DNA of 64,000 bases from Clostridia bacterium (GTDB taxonomy: Bacteria > Bacillota > Clostridia > Christensenellales > CAG-138). The notes under the pieces are model-generated. The model ran no database searches. It saw only the letters and a program-made list of their open reading frames with translations, and was not told where the DNA came from. Location: the NCBI GenBank assembly GCA_036652795.1, contig JAVVVD010000006.1, positions 8,164 to 72,163 on the forward strand, given 5' to 3'. The number at the start of each line of letters is the position of its first letter. Position 1 is the stretch's first letter. Positions 2,838-16,959 of the stretch are shown here, in pieces. A program made the position numbers and the translations under genes.

Positions 2838-4361
2838 TTATTCCCACTCTATAGTTCCCGGTGGCTTACTCGTGATATCGTAGACCACACGGTTCACATG
2901 AGGGACCTCCGCTATTATACGCTCCGAAATACCAGCTAGCACCTCATAGGGGAGCCTTGCCCATTCAACAGTCATAGCGTCAGTGCTGGTAACCGCCCGT
3001 ACGCCAATGGCATAATCATAGGTGCGCTGGTCGCCCATTACGCCCACGCTGCGCATTCCGGTGAACACCGTGAAATACTGCCATACCTGCTCGGCAAGGC
3101 CGGCCTTGGCAATTTCATCACGCAGGATAAAGTCGCTGTGGCGCAATATGGCAAGCTTATCCTCGGTGATATCGCCAATAATACGTATTGCAAGTCCTGG
3201 GCCGGGGAACGGCTGCCGCCAAACAAGCTCATGCGGGATACCAAGGCTTTCGCCCAGCACGCGCACCTCATCCTTAAAAAGCATCCTGAGCGGCTCTACA
3301 AGGCCAATAAAACCGATATCCTTTGGTAAACCACCTACATTATGGTGACTTTTTATCTTGGCAGAGCTGTCTGTTCCGCTTTCGATTATATCGGGATATA
3401 TGGTGCCCTGCAAAAGGTATGGGGCGCCACCAAGTTTTTTGGCTTCCTCTTCAAATACGCGGATGAATTCAGTGCCTATTATTTTGCGCTTTTGCTCAGG
3501 CTCAGTAACACCGCTCAGCTTATCCAAAAAGCGCTTCCGCGCATCCACTGCGATCACATTGAGCTTAAGCTTATCCCTGTAAAAGCTAATGACCTCTTTC
3601 GCTTCATTTTGACGCAGCAGGCCATGATCTACAAATATGCATGTTAGCTTATCGCCTACGGCCTTGTGTACGAGCACACTTGCAACGGAGGAGTCAACAC
3701 CACCGCTTAGCGCCCCCAGCACGCGGGCATCGCCAACCTGTGTGCGAATTTGTGAGATCAGCATATCGGCAAGACCCTGAGGCGTATAGTTGCACTCGCA
3801 TTTGCAGATGTTGCGCAGGAAGTTTTTAAATATTTGCATTCCGCCCGGCGTATGAGCTACCTCGGCGTGAAACTGTATGCCGTAAAGGCGGCGCGATTCG
3901 TCTGCAAAGGCCGCACAGCAGTTGCTGGTGTTGGCGATGCAGGAAAAACCATCTGGCAACTTGCTTACGGAATCGTTGTGATTCATCCATACAAAGCCAG
4001 CATCAAGGCCATCTAGCAGCGGATGTGACTGCATGGTAATGGGCGTCTTGCCATATTCGCGCACAGTGGAGGCGGTGATTTCACCGCCAAACATCTTGGC
4101 GATATATTGCATTCCGTAGCATATCCCAAGTATGGGCACGTTAAGGTTGAACACCGCTGGGTCACAGGCCATGGCGTTTTCGGCATACACACTGTCCGGC
4201 CCGCCGGAAAAAACTATGCCCGCGAGAGAATCGCCCTTTATCTGGTCGATGTCCGCTTTGTGCGAAAGCAGCTCGCTGTAAACGCCGGCTTCACGCAGTC
4301 TGCGCGCGATAAGCTGGTTATACTGGCCGCCAAAATCTAATACAACTACTCGCTCCATCAT
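2838..4361 (-). CDS. guaA: GMP synthase (glutamine-hydrolysing)
   Basis: N-terminal class I glutamine amidotransferase (ILGICYGMQ), ATP-PPase P-loop SGGVDSSV, and the conserved C-terminus KPPGTIEWE. Confidence 0.95.
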   Translation of the reverse strand: MMERVVVLDFGGQYNQLIARRLREAGVYSELLSHKADIDQIKGDSLAGIVFSGGPDSVYAENAMACDPAVFNLNVPILGICYGMQYIAKMFGGEITASTVREYGKTPITMQSHPLLDGLDAGFVWMNHNDSVSKLPDGFSCIANTSNCCAAFADESRRLYGIQFHAEVAHTPGGMQIFKNFLRNICKCECNYTPQGLADMLISQIRTQVGDARVLGALSGGVDSSVASVLVHKAVGDKLTCIFVDHGLLRQNEAKEVISFYRDKLKLNVIAVDARKRFLDKLSGVTEPEQKRKIIGTEFIRVFEEEAKKLGGAPYLLQGTIYPDIIESGTDSSAKIKSHHNVGGLPKDIGFIGLVEPLRMLFKDEVRVLGESLGIPHELVWRQPFPGPGLAIRIIGDITEDKLAILRHSDFILRDEIAKAGLAEQVWQYFTVFTGMRSVGVMGDQRTYDYAIGVRAVTSTDAMTVEWARLPYEVLAGISERIIAEVPHVNRVVYDITSKPPGTIEWE

Positions 4362-8954: not shown

Positions 8955-8989
8955 GAAAACAAAAAACAGCTCCCATTATCTGGGAGCTG
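8955..8989 (-). terminator. Terminator downstream of the queG-like gene
   Basis: On the minus strand, CAGCUCCCA-GAUAA-UGGGAGCUG is followed by UUUUUUGUUUUC. Confidence 0.65.
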
Positions 8990-9113
8990 CTGAATCTTGG
9001 GTTGGTACTGAAAGGGGATTCAGCGCCATTGCCATGTTTCACTTGCAGATTTATTATAACCCATCATACGGGAAAAATCATCACAAAAATGTTACATAAT
9101 TCTCAAAGTTGTG

Positions 9114-10025
9114 TTAGCTTTCTGGTGTATTACTAAAATAATTGATAACAGCCCATTCCGATGCGCGCCTTACCGCCTCAAATGGGGAGGAGTGCGCTGC
9201 ACGTATCTCGGACTCAAAGCGGCCATCGCGGGCGGCAAAGGCAATCGCTTCAGCCGTCAGCTTTCCATTTGCAGACATGTTGCGCCCTACAAGCTTACGT
9301 GCAGCTGAGGCGTTGCCCATTATAAGCTGTTTTGTATCGAACGCTTTGAGCACGTTGGCATCGGGTTCAGCAATGGGTATATGGCTGTTAAAAGGACATG
9401 CAAACATACAGGCCTCGCACCCAATATACCAGCGTTGACGCCGCATTATATCCGCCGGGTGCAGAGCGCCATCCATAGAAAACCGTATGCAGTGTGCAAC
9501 GTGCAACCTATCGGTGATGGCATGTGATGGGCAGGCATCGGCGCAGGCAGAGCAGCCAGTGTGGCAATGCGGCGCAAAGAGCGATTCGGTGCGCGGCGGG
9601 ATATCGGTAAGCAGCGTATACAGGGTAACGCGGGAGCCGTAGGGCGGCAGGCGCAGCAGCCCGTTTTTACCGACAACGCCTATGTTATAATGCAAGGCAA
9701 GGGCGCGTGCGGGGAGCTGGGCAAGCTCGGCGTAAGCACCGTTTTCGCATAGCTCGGCCGCCAGCATCTTTGCGGCATGATATGCGGCATTGCTTGCCAC
9801 ATAGTAGGCGCCTATGCGGCTATCCTGCGGGTATGGCGCATATGGGAAAACCAGCAACACTACGCTTTGGGCGCGCGGATAAAGGGAGCTGATATCATGC
9901 TCAAGGTGTGTGCCGCAGCGTGTGGCTTGAGCCGCTATTTGCCAATCGTTAAGGGGGGTGGGCGGAAGAAAGAAAATCCGACCAAAGCCCAAGTGCTGTG
10001 CAGCTTTTTCAACAAATTCGTGCAT
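9114..10025 (-). CDS. Epoxyqueuosine reductase (QueG)-like 4Fe-4S dicluster protein
   Basis: Two Cys clusters (CHTGCSACADACP, CEACMFACP) and a HEAT-like C-terminus. It is shorter than canonical QueG. There is no SD; see the leaderless promoter feature at 10032-10083. Confidence 0.45.
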   Translation of the reverse strand: MHEFVEKAAQHLGFGRIFFLPPTPLNDWQIAAQATRCGTHLEHDISSLYPRAQSVVLLVFPYAPYPQDSRIGAYYVASNAAYHAAKMLAAELCENGAYAELAQLPARALALHYNIGVVGKNGLLRLPPYGSRVTLYTLLTDIPPRTESLFAPHCHTGCSACADACPSHAITDRLHVAHCIRFSMDGALHPADIMRRQRWYIGCEACMFACPFNSHIPIAEPDANVLKAFDTKQLIMGNASAARKLVGRNMSANGKLTAEAIAFAARDGRFESEIRAAHSSPFEAVRRASEWAVINYFSNTPES

Positions 10026-10031
10026 ACTGGG

Positions 10032-10083
10032 ATTATAATACGGTATACAGGCCGTTGCAACAATAAGCGGGGAGGCGTATACT
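10032..10083. promoter_or_regulatory. Back-to-back divergent promoters sharing one palindromic -35 hexamer
   Basis: Plus strand: TTGCAA (10055-10060), 17 nt, TATACT (10078-10083), 6 nt, ATG of copA (10090). Minus strand: the same TTGCAA, 17 nt, TATAAT (10037-10032), 6 nt, ATG of the queG-like gene (10025). Confidence 0.5.
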
Positions 10084-10089
10084 CCAAAT

Positions 10090-12582
10090 ATGAAAAAAGA
10101 AACATTTTATATAACAGGTATGAGCTGCTCGGCGTGTGTGGCTCATGTGGAAAACAGTGTAAAGAAGCTCAGCGGACTCAAGGATGTATCCGTAAGCTTG
10201 CTGACAAACTCAATGAGTGCTACATATGATGACGGCATATTGACTGCTAATGCGATATTGGCGGCCGTAAAGGCGGCGGGCTATGGTGCGAGTGCGCAGG
10301 GAAAAGGCGCGCGGGATGATACGTTGGAGAAGGATATGCGTATTATGCGCAGTCGGCTGCTGCTTTCAATTTTGCTGCTTGTGTTGCTGATGTATGTGTC
10401 GATGCAGCATATGACGCATTTGCCGCTGCCGGCGTTTTTGCTGGGCGTGCCCAATGCAGGCCGTTTTGCGCTTTGTCAGCTGTTGCTGACGCTGCCGATA
10501 GTTTATCTTAACCGTAAATACTATTATTCCGGCTTTAAGGCCATTATGCTGGGCGCGCCCAATATGGATTCTCTTATCGCCATAGGTTCGCTTGCGGCGC
10601 TGCTGTATGGTGCGTATGTGTTTATAAAGATACTCATCGGCCTTGCGTCAGGCAATATGGCAACGGTGGAGCGCTTCGCGATGGATCTTTACTTTGAGAG
10701 CGCTGCAATGATACTTACGCTGGTGACGCTGGGTAAATATCTTGAAACTCGAGCACGCCGCCGTACGGGCGACGCTATACGCAAGCTGATGGAGCTTGCG
10801 CCGCGCCAGGCTACGGTAAAACGGGATGTAGAGGTGATTGTTCCTGCCGATGAAGTGCAGATTGGCGAAACATGCATAGTTCGTCCCGGTAGCGCTATTC
10901 CGGTGGATGGGGTAGTAACGGCAGGATTTACTAGCGTAGATGAATCCGCATTGACAGGCGAGAGCATTCCGGCCGAAAAGCGATTGGGCGATAAGGTGTT
11001 TGCGGGCACTGTGAATGGTGCGGGCTATATAGAATTCAACGTGAGCCAAGCGGCGCAGGATACTACGCTTGCACGCATGATAAGGCTGGTTGAGGAGGCT
11101 GGAGCCTCAAAAGCGCCAATCGCCAAAACGGCCGATAGGGTTGCGGCGGTGTTTGTACCAGTGGTGATGGGCATAGCGGTGTTGACGCTTGCGATATGGC
11201 TTATAGCGGGTGAGGGCGCGGAATTTGCGCTGAGCCGCGCAATCTCGGTGCTGGTGATCTCCTGCCCCTGCGCACTGGGTCTGGCTACGCCTGTGGCGAT
11301 AATGGCGGGCACAGGCGTGGGTGCGCAACAGGGAATTTTGATAAAATCAGCAGAAGCGCTTGAAACGCTGCATAGGATAGACACGGTGGTGCTGGATAAA
11401 ACGGGTACACTAACCGTGGGAAAGCCAATGGTAACAGATATATTGCCCCGTGGCATAGATAATGAAAAACTGCTTGGGATAGCCGCGACATTGGAGACGC
11501 AAAGCGAGCATCCGCTGGCTGAGGCAGTGCTTACTGCTGCCAAGGCGCGGGGAATAAGGCTCAACAGCGCGGCGGACTTTACCTATACGCCAGGCCGTGG
11601 TATAGCGGCAAGCGTAGATGGCGTACCCTGTTTGCTTGGCAATGCGGCGCTGCTGAGTGAAGCCGGCGTGGACGCACAGGCACTGGAAGCGGATGCGCGG
11701 GCGTTGGCGCAGGAGGGCAAAACACCGCTGTATGTTGCAATGGGCGGCAAACCGGTTGGCGTGATAGCCGCCGCTGATCTGCCAAAGCCCAGCAGCCGAG
11801 CAGCCGTTGACGAGCTTATAGGCATGGGCCTAACCCCCATAATGCTAACCGGTGATAACAGGCGTACGGCGGAAGCCACGGCGCGGACGCTTGGCATAAA
11901 GCTGGTATATGCTGAGGTAATGCCTGAGGATAAGGAACGCGTGGTGGCGGAGCTTATGCAATCCGGGAAACGGGTTGCCATGGTTGGGGACGGGATAAAT
12001 GATGCCGTGGCGCTCATGCGTGCGAATGTGGGCTTTGCATTGGGTGCGGGTACGGATATCGCAATGGACAGCGCCGATATAGTGCTTACAAAAAGCGATC
12101 TCACAGCCGTGGCAAACGCTGTGCGGCTTTCACGTGCAGTAATGCGCAACATCAAGCAAAATCTTTTCTGGGCGTTTTTCTATAATTGCGTTGGTATACC
12201 GCTTGCCGCAGGTGCGCTGTACGTGCCATTTGGAATAGTGCTAAGCCCAATGATTGCCGCTGCCGCCATGAGCCTAAGCTCGATTTTCGTGGTTGGAAAC
12301 GCGTTAAGGCTAAAGCTGTTTAAGCCACACTTGGCGTATTACATAAAAAAGGATGGAAATGATATTATGACAACAAGACTGATACGTATAGAGGGAATGA
12401 TGTGTGCGCACTGCAAATCACATGTTGAACAGGCGCTCACGGCTATTGAGGGCGTAAGTGCCATTGTGGATCTGGCGGCAAACACCGCTCAGGTGCGTGC
12501 GCCACAGGGCGTTAGCGATGAAGTGCTTGCGGCTGCGGTCAGTGCAGCGGGTTATAGGGTAATGGGTATAGAGATAATATAA
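10090..12582 (+). CDS. copA: Copper-translocating P1B-type ATPase with N- and C-terminal HMA domains
   Basis: N-terminal [13 protein letters not shown] motif ([11 protein letters not shown]), DKTGTLT, GDGINDAP-like (GDGINDAV), and a C-terminal second HMA ([11 protein letters not shown], aa 760-830). Confidence 0.95.
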
Positions 12583-12596
12583 GGAGGAAGATTGTT

Positions 12597-13160
12597 ATGT
12601 TCTGTAGTAGATGCGGAAAACGCATGGAAGAAGGCTCGGTATTTTGCTCTGGATGCGGCTCGCATCTGGGTGCGGCGAATATGGAGACTGAATCGACCAT
12701 GCAGATAATTGAGGACGGCAAACAGGGTGCGCAGGATCAAAGCGAACATATGTATACGCCGGGGAATATACCGCCTGAAGATCATGGTGGCATCAAGCTT
12801 GACAACACCGCCATATGGATAATGGCATTATTGCCGGTAATAGGCATTATAGCCACGTTGGTGCTTATACCTGTAAGTATACCGCTTGCGATCTTAGTAT
12901 GTTTGCTTATCGTTGCGGGCGATGCGGCGCTGTATGTGATGGATAAAAGGCAGTTTGATGATGGTGCGCTAAGCGGGTGGGGCTGGACGGCTATAGTCGT
13001 GCCGGTGGTGTATCTATACATGCGCGCGGCGAAGTTCGATAAAAAATATGCTCCGGCAGTGACCCATTCGGTAATACTGGTCATAAACAGCATGGTAATC
13101 ATTATGTATAGCATGTTTATGGTATCCAGATACCTCTTTGAACATGTGCAGATGTGGTAA
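12597..13160 (+). CDS. Zinc-ribbon domain membrane protein
   Basis: N-terminal CSRCGKRM...CSGCG zinc ribbon, then about four TM helices. AAGGAGGAAG SD upstream. Confidence 0.6.
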   Translation: MFCSRCGKRMEEGSVFCSGCGSHLGAANMETESTMQIIEDGKQGAQDQSEHMYTPGNIPPEDHGGIKLDNTAIWIMALLPVIGIIATLVLIPVSIPLAILVCLLIVAGDAALYVMDKRQFDDGALSGWGWTAIVVPVVYLYMRAAKFDKKYAPAVTHSVILVINSMVIIMYSMFMVSRYLFEHVQMW

Positions 13161-13177
13161 TTATACCCCAATAGCAG

Positions 13178-13222
13178 AATACGCCGCGCTCACACTGGCT
13201 GTGGGCGTGGCGTATTTATATT
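13178..13222. terminator. Terminator between convergent genes
   Basis: aatacgccgcgctcaca-ctggc-tgtgggcgtggcgtatt (about 17-bp stem including G:U pairs), followed by tatatt. Confidence 0.7.
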
Positions 13223-13241
13223 GCTCCGTGATTTTTTACCC

Positions 13242-14492
13242 TTAGCCAATGGAAACATCTGGATCAGGAAGTATCTGCTCGCCATCTGTAGGGGGCTGCC
13301 ATACCTCAGGATCCTGAGGTATGTTAGGATCTTCCTCCCAAAGGTATTCATTTTCATATTGGGCCTCAAGCGCAAGCTGTGCCGCAATCGCTTCAATGGC
13401 GGAAACGTCTATCTCAGGGTCCACAACAACGTTAACACCGAACACATCCTTAACAAGCTGTTCGATTTTATTCGCCTTTACAGCCCAGCATGAGGCTTTG
13501 CCCACGTTAATCGCCCTGCCCTCTATTGTGTAGCGGTTAAGCTGATCCATATCCATGCGCAAGCCCACAAGCGCCAACGAGGATATCTGCACAAAGCTGA
13601 GATTTGTTGCAATGTTCGCCTGCAACGCCGTGTATACCTGAGGTATGTTGACTATCTGCCCTGAGGTTTTAAGCTGATCAAGTATTGCGGATAACATGCG
13701 CTGCTGCCTGTCTATGCGGCGTATATCGGAATCCGCCTTACGCATACGGCAATAATCAAGTACCTGCTGCCCGTTTAGGTGCTGGAAACCAACTTCAAGT
13801 GTGCGTCCGTTCATATGTATAGGCACGTCAACATCGTAATCCACGCCACCCATTGCATCCACTACCTGCTTCACGGCGTTCATGTTGACGCACATATAAT
13901 AATTAATGGGAATACCGCCAAGCATCATGCTTACGGTTTTCATGGTATACTCATACCCGCTCTTTTTTGCACCCCCACCTTTGGGAAATGCGGCGTTTAT
14001 TTTGTTGTAGGGCGAAAGCTCGTTAGCCAGGTTGCCCTTTGAGGTATATATTTTTACATAACTGTCCCTAGGCACGGATATCATATCTACCTTGTTGGTT
14101 TCAAAATCTATGCTTACAATTATTATCGTATCCGTACGGAACGAGCCCCAGTTTTCGCGCTCTGTACTCTCGTCAATGCCAAGCAGCAGGATGTTTACGC
14201 GGTTCTTCATAAATTCAATATCCGACTGCGACAACAAGACCACCTCGGGGTCAGGCGTGGGAGAGGGCGATGGGGTTGGTGCCGCGCTTGCGCTGGGTGT
14301 TGGTGCAATGGGCGGCGGCGTAGGGGTGTTTTGGTTAAACAGGCCAAGTGGGTTTTGTATATCGCGCACAAATTTTACACCAACGATTACGCCAACCAGC
14401 AACAGCGCGGTAAGCGTAAGCAATATCGCGGTGAGTACCGGCCTTTTTTTCTTTGTGTTTTTGGTTATCTTTTCCAATTTATATTTTCCCAT
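13242..14492 (-). CDS. LytR-CpsA-Psr (LCP) family cell-wall glycopolymer transferase
   Basis: N-terminal TM helix, a Pro/Ser/Thr linker, and the LCP core NILLLGIDES...RTDTIIIVSID...ISVPRDSYV. Confidence 0.85.
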   Translation of the reverse strand: MGKYKLEKITKNTKKKRPVLTAILLTLTALLLVGVIVGVKFVRDIQNPLGLFNQNTPTPPPIAPTPSASAAPTPSPSPTPDPEVVLLSQSDIEFMKNRVNILLLGIDESTERENWGSFRTDTIIIVSIDFETNKVDMISVPRDSYVKIYTSKGNLANELSPYNKINAAFPKGGGAKKSGYEYTMKTVSMMLGGIPINYYMCVNMNAVKQVVDAMGGVDYDVDVPIHMNGRTLEVGFQHLNGQQVLDYCRMRKADSDIRRIDRQQRMLSAILDQLKTSGQIVNIPQVYTALQANIATNLSFVQISSLALVGLRMDMDQLNRYTIEGRAINVGKASCWAVKANKIEQLVKDVFGVNVVVDPEIDVSAIEAIAAQLALEAQYENEYLWEEDPNIPQDPEVWQPPTDGEQILPDPDVSIG

Positions 14493-15854: not shown

Positions 15855-15899
15855 ATTAAAGGATTATAAAACAAAAAGAAGGGAATAAGCTGAGGAATA

Positions 15900-16832: not shown

Positions 16833-16959
16833 TGCTAAAAATTGCCTGTTTATTAACGCCATATAGCGATGGTGTTAACGGTGTGTAAACATGGCGGGCG
16901 GGGCATTGAAAGTGGTATAGGGGCATAGTATACTCCAAATGAACAGGAGGTAGTATACC

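Follow-up and report, generated by a model that had tools for sequence, protein, structure and literature searches.

Two divergent promoters predicted to share one palindromic -35 hexamer between a candidate leaderless Fe-S protein gene and copA in a Clostridia bacterium

The divergent gene pair and its intergenic spacer

Here, we focus on a short intergenic spacer in a 64,000-nt (64-kb) stretch of DNA from a Clostridia bacterium of the order Christensenellales (contig JAVVVD010000006.1), which is referred to as the window throughout. In it, a gene for an iron-sulfur (Fe-S) protein on the - strand and copA, the gene for a copper-translocating ATPase, on the + strand diverge from a gap of 64 bp (10026-10089). 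The gap appears to hold two back-to-back promoters which use a single palindromic -35 hexamer and fire at the start codons themselves, so that both mRNAs would be leaderless. As judged from sequence, this reading is moderately probable as a whole, and its parts differ in strength.

The Fe-S protein is distantly related to QueG and to reductive dehalogenases. The initial annotation had called its gene queG-like, which is apt for a distant resemblance and goes too far if QueG proper is meant: with TIGR00276, the QueG equivalog model, the protein scores 54.7 bits where 200 are required, and among solved structures its best relative, Bacillus subtilis QueG (5d08), aligns over residues 99-293 only (E = 1e-13). 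CopA scores well above its subfamily cutoffs (TIGR01511, 566.9 bits vs 397; TIGR01525, 613.2 bits vs 346) and consists of E1-E2 ATPase, HAD hydrolase and HMA domains, with an HMA at both the N- and the C-terminus. The second, C-terminal HMA (residues 765-825; 12382-12582), which is also found in the nearest homologues P0063, P0064 and P0174, looks like a fused CopZ-like module.

Any statement on leaders depends on the start codons, and from the alignments and reading frames these are secure for both genes. For the Fe-S protein, M1 lines up with residue 1 in most of 15 homologues (MHEFVEKA vs consensus MYE.IE). For copA, there is no in-frame start between the stop codon at 10036-10038 and the ATG at 10090, and the HMA fold begins at residue 5.

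The features of the gap are collected in Table 1. Toward copA, the + strand reads TTGCAA, a spacer of 17 nt (10061-10077), TATACT, CCAAAT and then ATG. Toward the Fe-S gene, the - strand reads the same TTGCAA, again 17 nt (10054..10038), TATAAT, CCCAGT and then the ATG at 10025..10023. This is possible with TTGCAA, the sole hexamer that reads TTG on both strands. Compared with the sigma-70/sigma-A consensus (TTGACA/TATAAT), 9 of 12 positions match on the + strand and 10 of 12 on the - strand, both with 17-bp spacers, and the predicted start sites of the two genes lie 65 bp apart. The length of the gap equals 2 x (6 + 6 + 17) + 6, the shortest spacer that can accommodate two standard leaderless promoters placed back to back. 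With the spacer at this minimum and promoters firing at both ATGs, the -35 hexamers therefore overlap completely. The shared hexamer and mirror-image geometry described in the initial annotation are correct to the base, and it is equally true that the Fe-S gene has no Shine-Dalgarno sequence (SD) and that the GGAGG of copA lies 14 nt upstream, within the gene's own promoter spacer.

A consensus scan restricted to the gap returns exactly two sites, one on each strand, compared to a mean of 0.1 in shuffled sequence. In a Monte Carlo simulation with random 64-mers of equal composition, 0.3% of the trials produced a promoter with leaderless geometry on one strand, and a fraction of 3.5e-5 produced one on each strand. 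Both promoters are thus far above chance. An Rfam search of 9700-10400 gave zero matches. Since a terminator-like hairpin follows the Fe-S gene, this gene looks monocistronic, while the zinc-ribbon gene behind copA is probably co-transcribed with it.

Conservation of the Fe-S gene start and of the overlapping -35

Close relatives of the Fe-S protein are lacking; in a family of about 59 members the nearest is 53% identical, and the homologues compared here range from 44 to 53%. Four assemblies carry the window locus. As these are identical there, and the next relatives share only about 50% protein identity, conservation of the spacer at the nucleotide level is not assessable. The comparison was made at nine homologue loci (L001, L076, L077, L078, L079, L163, L164, L165 and L166), where the DNA was read immediately before the start codon fixed by protein alignment. 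A search of genome contigs with the Fe-S protein contributed only L001 to this set; the other 70 of its 71 loci were matches of 26-33% identity to the ferredoxin domain alone, mostly in metagenome-assembled genomes (MAGs) of Myxococcota. An alignment-based scan of metagenome contigs yielded distant relatives only (mostly 24-33% identity, presumably QueG-type), as its peptide patterns were generic, and was not used.

At seven of the nine loci, the ATG is preceded by a -10 hexamer at a distance of exactly 6 nt and no SD is present (Table 1), which together with the window gives 8/10 lineages of the Fe-S gene. Genes neighboring it at the same loci behave differently: a -10-like hexamer 5-8 nt before the start is seen in 1 of 41, and most have clear SDs (Fisher test for 7/9 vs 1/41, 2.8e-6). 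Across this gene family, the leaderless geometry has thus been conserved. In addition, the first 45 nt of the predicted Fe-S mRNA are less structured than nearly all of 200 shuffled versions (z +1.9). Taken at face value, these patterns make it quite likely that the Fe-S gene is leaderless. The public gene calls for two homologues, P0008 (L077, 3474-3501) and P0010 (L001, 3989-4001), begin at a later TTG and so drop the conserved N-terminus, which is restored when the upstream leaderless ATG is taken as the start (MYERIERAALELGF in L077). The truncation in these two arises because gene callers expect an SD.

The overlap of the two -35 elements can also be followed into relatives. Opposite the Fe-S gene, L076, L077 and L166 carry a gene for a 68-residue HMA protein (copZ-like) with a LytR-family gene beyond it, a neighborhood which matches that of the window with copA in place of copZ. 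The intergenic spacers are longer here (105-116 bp), and the scan again returns exactly two sites, one on each strand (0.0-0.1 in shuffles). Their -35 hexamers, TTTACA on the + strand and TTGTAA on the - strand, overlap by 5 bp in the heptamer TTTACAA. With the 6 bp of the window, a -35 overlap of 5-6 bp is found in 4/4 lineages that have a copper gene opposite the Fe-S gene. Outside the -35, the adjoining sequences differ from lineage to lineage, and at the three loci copZ retains a weak SD and a leader of about 50-60 nt. From this distribution, the leaderless Fe-S gene and the overlapping -35 look ancestral, and the window version looks like a further compaction in which the overlap has grown to 6 bp and the copper gene has lost its leader too.

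Since the neighborhood spans four lineages sharing about 50% protein identity, the conserved pairing with copZ or copA hints at a functional link between the Fe-S protein and copper handling. The gene order itself is conserved over window positions 9114-14492 and at L076, L077 and L166, with a LytR-family gene, an aldose epimerase or zinc-ribbon gene, and copZ or copA facing the Fe-S gene. The 5' leaders of copZ contain GC-rich palindromes or hairpins, each one different, in L076 (GTGGCCCAC, ~3420-3440), L077 (GCCGCAAAGCGGC / AAGCGGCCGCTT, 3386-3398) and L166 (GCGTG...CACGC, ~2400-2420), and these may be operators or RNA structures.

Leaderless signatures elsewhere in the window

A crude gene list of the window holds 53 genes. 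When SDs are counted at 3-12 nt from the start codon, 37 genes have one and 16 do not. Eight of these 16 carry a -10-like hexamer 5-8 nt before the start, compared to a background of 9.3% (binomial, 3.7e-5), and when at least five of six matches are demanded, 6/16 remain against a background of 2.4% (1.3e-6). All eight candidates start with ATG. The signature is therefore present in about 6-8 of the 53 genes, or roughly 11-15%, a larger share than the 2-4% published for cultured clostridia (PMC9045289, PMC5171806); four of the candidates are listed in Table 1.

A second compact divergent spacer occurs at 15855-15899 (45 bp), between a metallophosphoesterase gene (- strand, ATG 15854) and a gene of the metallo-beta-lactamase fold (+ strand, ATG 15900). 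The - strand has TATAAT at 15868..15863, 8 nt before the ATG and with no SD, and this hexamer overlaps TATAAA of the + strand at 15865-15870. By its sequence, the spacer looks like a bidirectional promoter with a shared -10.

Table 1. Features of the Fe-S/copA locus, of the remaining window and of homologous Fe-S genes (window coordinates).
Feature	Position	Strand	Remarks
Fe-S protein gene	9114..10025	-	303 residues; two 4Fe-4S clusters (Fer4_16); predicted transcription start, A of ATG (10025)
copA	10090..12582	+	830-residue P1B-type ATPase; predicted transcription start, A of ATG (10090)
TTGCAA, -35 on both strands	10055..10060	.	palindromic; core of the 8-bp palindrome GTTGCAAC (10054-10061)
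TATACT, copA -10	10078..10083	+	17 nt past the -35, 6 nt before the ATG
TATAAT, Fe-S gene -10	10032..10037	-	within palindrome ATTATAAT (10032-10039)
GGAGG	10071..10075	+	in copA promoter spacer, 14 nt before ATG; within G-tract GCGGGGAGGCG
GTATAC palindrome	10043..10048	.	in spacer of Fe-S gene promoter
GTATAC palindrome, second copy	10077..10082	.	overlaps copA -10 (G + -10 hexamer)
Terminator-like hairpin	8965..8991	-	downstream of Fe-S gene
Zinc-ribbon membrane protein gene	12597..13160	+	187 residues; 14 nt past copA; own AGGAGG SD
Second promoter	16906..16941	+	TTGAAA-17-TATACT-CCAAAT; GGGG at spacer positions 9-12
LytR-family gene	14492	-	CATACT-6-ATG, no SD
ECF sigma factor gene	46057	-	TATTAT-5-ATG, no SD
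MatE gene	62369	-	GATAAT-8-ATG, no SD
DUF4230 gene	37607	+	TTGAAA-17-TATAAT-8-ATG, no SD; alternative ATG 37628 behind G-rich tract
Upstream of Fe-S gene, L076			TTTACA-17-TATAAT-CCTTTT-ATG
Upstream of Fe-S gene, L077			TTTACA-17-TATACT-GCTCTT-ATG
Upstream of Fe-S gene, L166			TTTACA-17-TATAAT-CGCTTT-ATG
Upstream of Fe-S gene, L078			TATAAT-TATAGC-ATG
Upstream of Fe-S gene, L079			TTTACT-17-TATCAT-GGAGCC-ATG
Upstream of Fe-S gene, L163			TATGAT-AAGCTC-ATG
Upstream of Fe-S gene, L001			TTGCAA-17-TAACAT-GGGCGT-ATG

Proposed mechanism

The arrangement would work as follows. Two promoters of the housekeeping-sigma type (sigma-A/sigma-70) would stand back to back with TTGCAA as their common -35. 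Given spacers of 17 bp and near-consensus -10 elements ending 6 nt before each ATG, the first transcribed nucleotide would in both genes be the A of the start codon or lie no more than about 1 nt from it. The resulting mRNAs would have neither a 5' leader nor an SD, and the ribosome would directly recognize the 5'-terminal AUG. The leaderless start of the Fe-S gene and the overlapping -35 would have been inherited, in keeping with the same layout in the relatives that carry copZ, whereas in the window lineage the copA leader would have been lost as well, bringing the spacer to its minimum.

Only one polymerase at a time could then use the shared -35, so that a promoter firing strongly would lower the output of its partner. 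Steric exclusion is a fair expectation because two sigma region-4 domains cannot share the same 6 bp, and because the footprints of two polymerases with starts 65 bp apart overlap widely. As a regulatory device between copper export and the Fe-S enzyme, the mutual exclusion proposed in the initial annotation is a hypothesis that goes beyond this steric argument. A more far-reaching version, in which the shared -35 is a conserved toggle that needs no regulator, with copper and Fe-S genes anticorrelated in single cells and no modulation through the 5' untranslated region, strikes us as quite improbable. If it were true, the leaderless Fe-S family would be a dedicated part of the copper-stress response in a group of uncultured Clostridia.

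A possible shared operator in the gap

The gap might instead serve mainly to bind a regulator. A metal-sensing or other repressor whose binding site covers the G-tract, the GTATAC sequences and the shared -35 could switch both genes together; the promoters could be real and their overlap a by-product, with a shared operator rather than polymerase competition as the mechanism. In favor of this, four lineages have the Fe-S gene paired with a copper gene. In addition, the window, L077 and L166 contain G-tracts in the promoter spacers of their copper genes, and these tracts resemble one half of the C/G-tract palindromes that follow the -10 in the csoR-adjacent copA homologues at L081 and L082.

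A further point for such an operator comes from a second promoter in the window (16906-16941). This promoter precedes a gene for a lipoprotein-like protein of 120 residues (GTG 16960), which has a leader of about 19 nt and an AGGAGG SD. It shares with the copA promoter the exact 13-mer G-TATACT-CCAAAT (GTATACTCCAAAT; 16928-16940), a recurrence with a chance of about 0.002 in the window, as well as GGGG at the same spacer positions, and GTATAC pairs are present at both promoters. The second promoter with its two GTATAC copies keeps the operator idea alive, if weakly. A perfect 7-bp inverted repeat, GTATACT(16928)-N17-AGTATAC(16958), brackets the AGGAGG of the lipoprotein-like gene and may be a shared operator or a hairpin that sequesters the SD.

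Other observations speak against a shared operator. The initial annotation placed two GTATAC palindromes in the spacers and proposed them as operator half-sites. Their positions are right, and the proposed role is weak because the hexamer is over-represented threefold throughout the window (39 copies vs 12.4 expected from dinucleotide shuffles, mostly within genes) and one of the two copies is simply G plus the -10. Codon or dipeptide bias and a history of methylation or restriction are possibilities for the excess. Searches of the window with the AGTATACT palindrome and with GTATACT-N17-AGTATAC gave no further informative sites, leaving the repressor without a third site there. The gapped pattern TTGNAA-N8-GGGG-N4-GTATACT was derived from the very two sites it describes, so its expectation of zero is no test. 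The G-tract is present as a half only, with no dyad beyond GTTGCAAC; the flanks of the -35, as noted above, differ between lineages; and the lipoprotein-like protein has no obvious metal-binding residues.

Nor is a regulator apparent nearby. Within the 64 kb, csoR is absent by tblastn (E > 0.5) and no open reading frame contains a CsoR motif, while a search for the CopY-type CxC motif in the open reading frames and for the cop box TACAnnTGTA was also negative, which bears out the earlier remark that neither csoR nor copY is visible. Of an operon of the CsoR or CopY type, the window thus offers a G-tract half-site and no adjacent regulator. MerR/CueR-type promoters have spacers of 19-20 bp, and control of this kind was set aside since both spacers here are 17 bp. 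On balance, a shared operator as the main function of the gap is somewhat unlikely.

Is copA leaderless?

Several points weigh against the reading of two leaderless promoters on a shared -35. Its start sites are predicted from the consensus only. In the Fe-S family there are exceptions, with an ordinary GGAGG-7-ATG at L164 and an ambiguous reading at L165, and some of the window candidates are ambiguous as well, such as 37607 vs 37628. Leaderless mRNAs are rare in cultured clostridia: 15 such genes are reported for C. difficile (PMC7438776), and the share is 2-4% when start sites or transcripts are counted (PMC9045289, PMC5171806). Where two promoters have a -10 in common, polymerase competition was found to count only when promoter activity is high (PMC12825309). 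The remaining points concern copA. Its nearest homologues (about 57% identity; L080-L082) are leadered, have an SD and lie next to csoR; the geometry is not conserved in them, so a leaderless copA is without comparative support. Moreover, palindrome ATTATAAT provides TATAAT on the + strand too (10034-10039), and although this hexamer has neither a -35 nor a TG, it would allow a 44-nt leader containing the GGAGG.

These points can be turned into an alternative in which copA is leadered, being transcribed from the + strand TATAAT of ATTATAAT (start ~10046) or from within the Fe-S gene. The GGAGG would then be a long-spaced SD and the + strand TTGCAA/TATACT secondary or unused. A perfect + strand TATAAT does exist, symmetric -10 elements often fire both ways (10.1101/2020.01.31.928960), the GGAGG is present, and a leader is found both in the copA homologues and in the copZ genes of L076, L077 and L166. 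However, the + strand TATAAT lacks a -35 with at least four of six matches as well as a TG extension, and a consensus scan finds no + strand promoter-like site between 9057 and 10055, the nearest one upstream being 9029-9057. The gap of 14 nt between GGAGG and ATG exceeds those of all 37 SD-bearing genes in the window (3-12 nt), and in the hypothetical leadered RNA the GGAG is sequestered by pairing with CUCC at 10082-10085. TTGCAA-17-TATACT, on the other hand, is as good as many other promoters, and its 13-mer is reused at 16928-16940; because this identical copy drives a normally leadered gene, the 13-mer is suggested to be a working promoter core. We consider a leadered copA unlikely, although the + strand TATAAT could yield a minor start near 10046.

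The GGAGG would not be transcribed from the TTGCAA/TATACT promoter, and it is probably not a ribosome-binding site. As the main SD of copA it was rejected on spacing and pairing, and it is retained only within the leadered alternative. In the predicted leaderless copA mRNA, the first 17 nt are unpaired and the first 45 nt are weakly structured. Of the leaderless starts claimed for both ATGs, that of the Fe-S gene is upheld by the geometry conserved in 8/10 lineages, whereas that of copA is plausible, no more, as its homologues elsewhere are leadered. For copA we lean slightly toward a leaderless start, predicted to be specific to the window lineage.

It is also conceivable that the hexamers match by coincidence in a short AT-containing spacer, with the real promoters elsewhere or served by another sigma factor, and matches of 9-10 out of 12 are indeed common (14 in the 5 kb around the site vs 6.6 in shuffles), but the low chance of the joint geometry and the recurrence of the layout in independent lineages with otherwise diverged intergenic DNA make this extremely improbable.

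Significance and comparison with known systems

Read as two leaderless promoters on a shared -35, the gap would show in nature how far the spacer between two standard divergent promoters can shrink (64 bp = 2 x 29 + 6). Neither transcript is predicted to carry a leader, and this in a phylum in which such mRNAs are considered rare. Competition between polymerases for one -35 could be studied on it in compact form, which would complement recent studies of -10 sharing. A testable link to copper homeostasis is suggested by the conserved proximity of copZ or copA to the gene for this uncharacterized Fe-S protein. Of practical use is the finding that members of the Fe-S family, which keeps its leaderless geometry across lineages, were truncated by SD-expecting gene callers in at least two of the public assemblies (L077 and L001).

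The literature already has divergent promoters that overlap and give leaderless transcripts. The window case is neat and conserved but unsurprising in principle. Divergent promoters with overlapping -35 elements and a leaderless transcript have been described for qseC/qseM of ICEMlSymR7A and for the C-protein controllers of type II restriction-modification systems (PMC8789080). The compact, switch-like layout of these systems is much like that of the window. Switching in them is governed by a dedicated DNA-binding protein with two operators, and the leaderless transcript is that of the regulator gene alone. In the window, no regulator or operator has been identified, both genes are seemingly leaderless and the hexamer is fully shared; the genes encode a transporter and an Fe-S enzyme, in a MAG of Clostridia.

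The PRM/PR region of phage lambda is likewise built from back-to-back divergent promoters, and the cI mRNA made from PRM starts at its AUG and is leaderless. The start sites of PRM and PR are about 80 bp apart, their -35 elements are separate, control is exerted through the OR operators, and cro is leadered. The back-to-back layout and the leaderless transcript are thus alike, while -35 sharing, start distance and operator control differ.

Bidirectional promoters of a different kind share a symmetric -10, with start sites 7-25 bp apart and 18 bp as the commonest distance (10.1101/2020.01.31.928960; PMC12825309). There too, the symmetry of one hexamer serves both strands, and a polymerase bound in one orientation excludes the other. 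The shared -10 by which Warman et al. define a bidirectional promoter is not what is found here, where it is the -35 that is shared and the predicted starts lie 65 bp apart.

With respect to leaderless transcription in general, PMC4007540, citing Cortes et al. (2013), describes for Deinococcus and Actinobacteria a -10 about 6-7 nt before ATG or GTG and no SD in 25-60% of genes. The signature is less frequent in the window, at about 11-15% of genes, and the Fe-S gene keeps it where its neighbors do not. The CsoR-repressed cop operons of Firmicutes (L081, L082) resemble the window in that their copA belongs to the same clade, carries an HMA at either end and has a G-rich tract close to its promoter, and differ from it in having csoR, a C/G-tract palindrome and a leader. 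What sets the window case apart from all of these systems is its combination of a fully shared -35, two genes that are both predicted to be leaderless, no dedicated regulator identified, and its occurrence in Clostridia.

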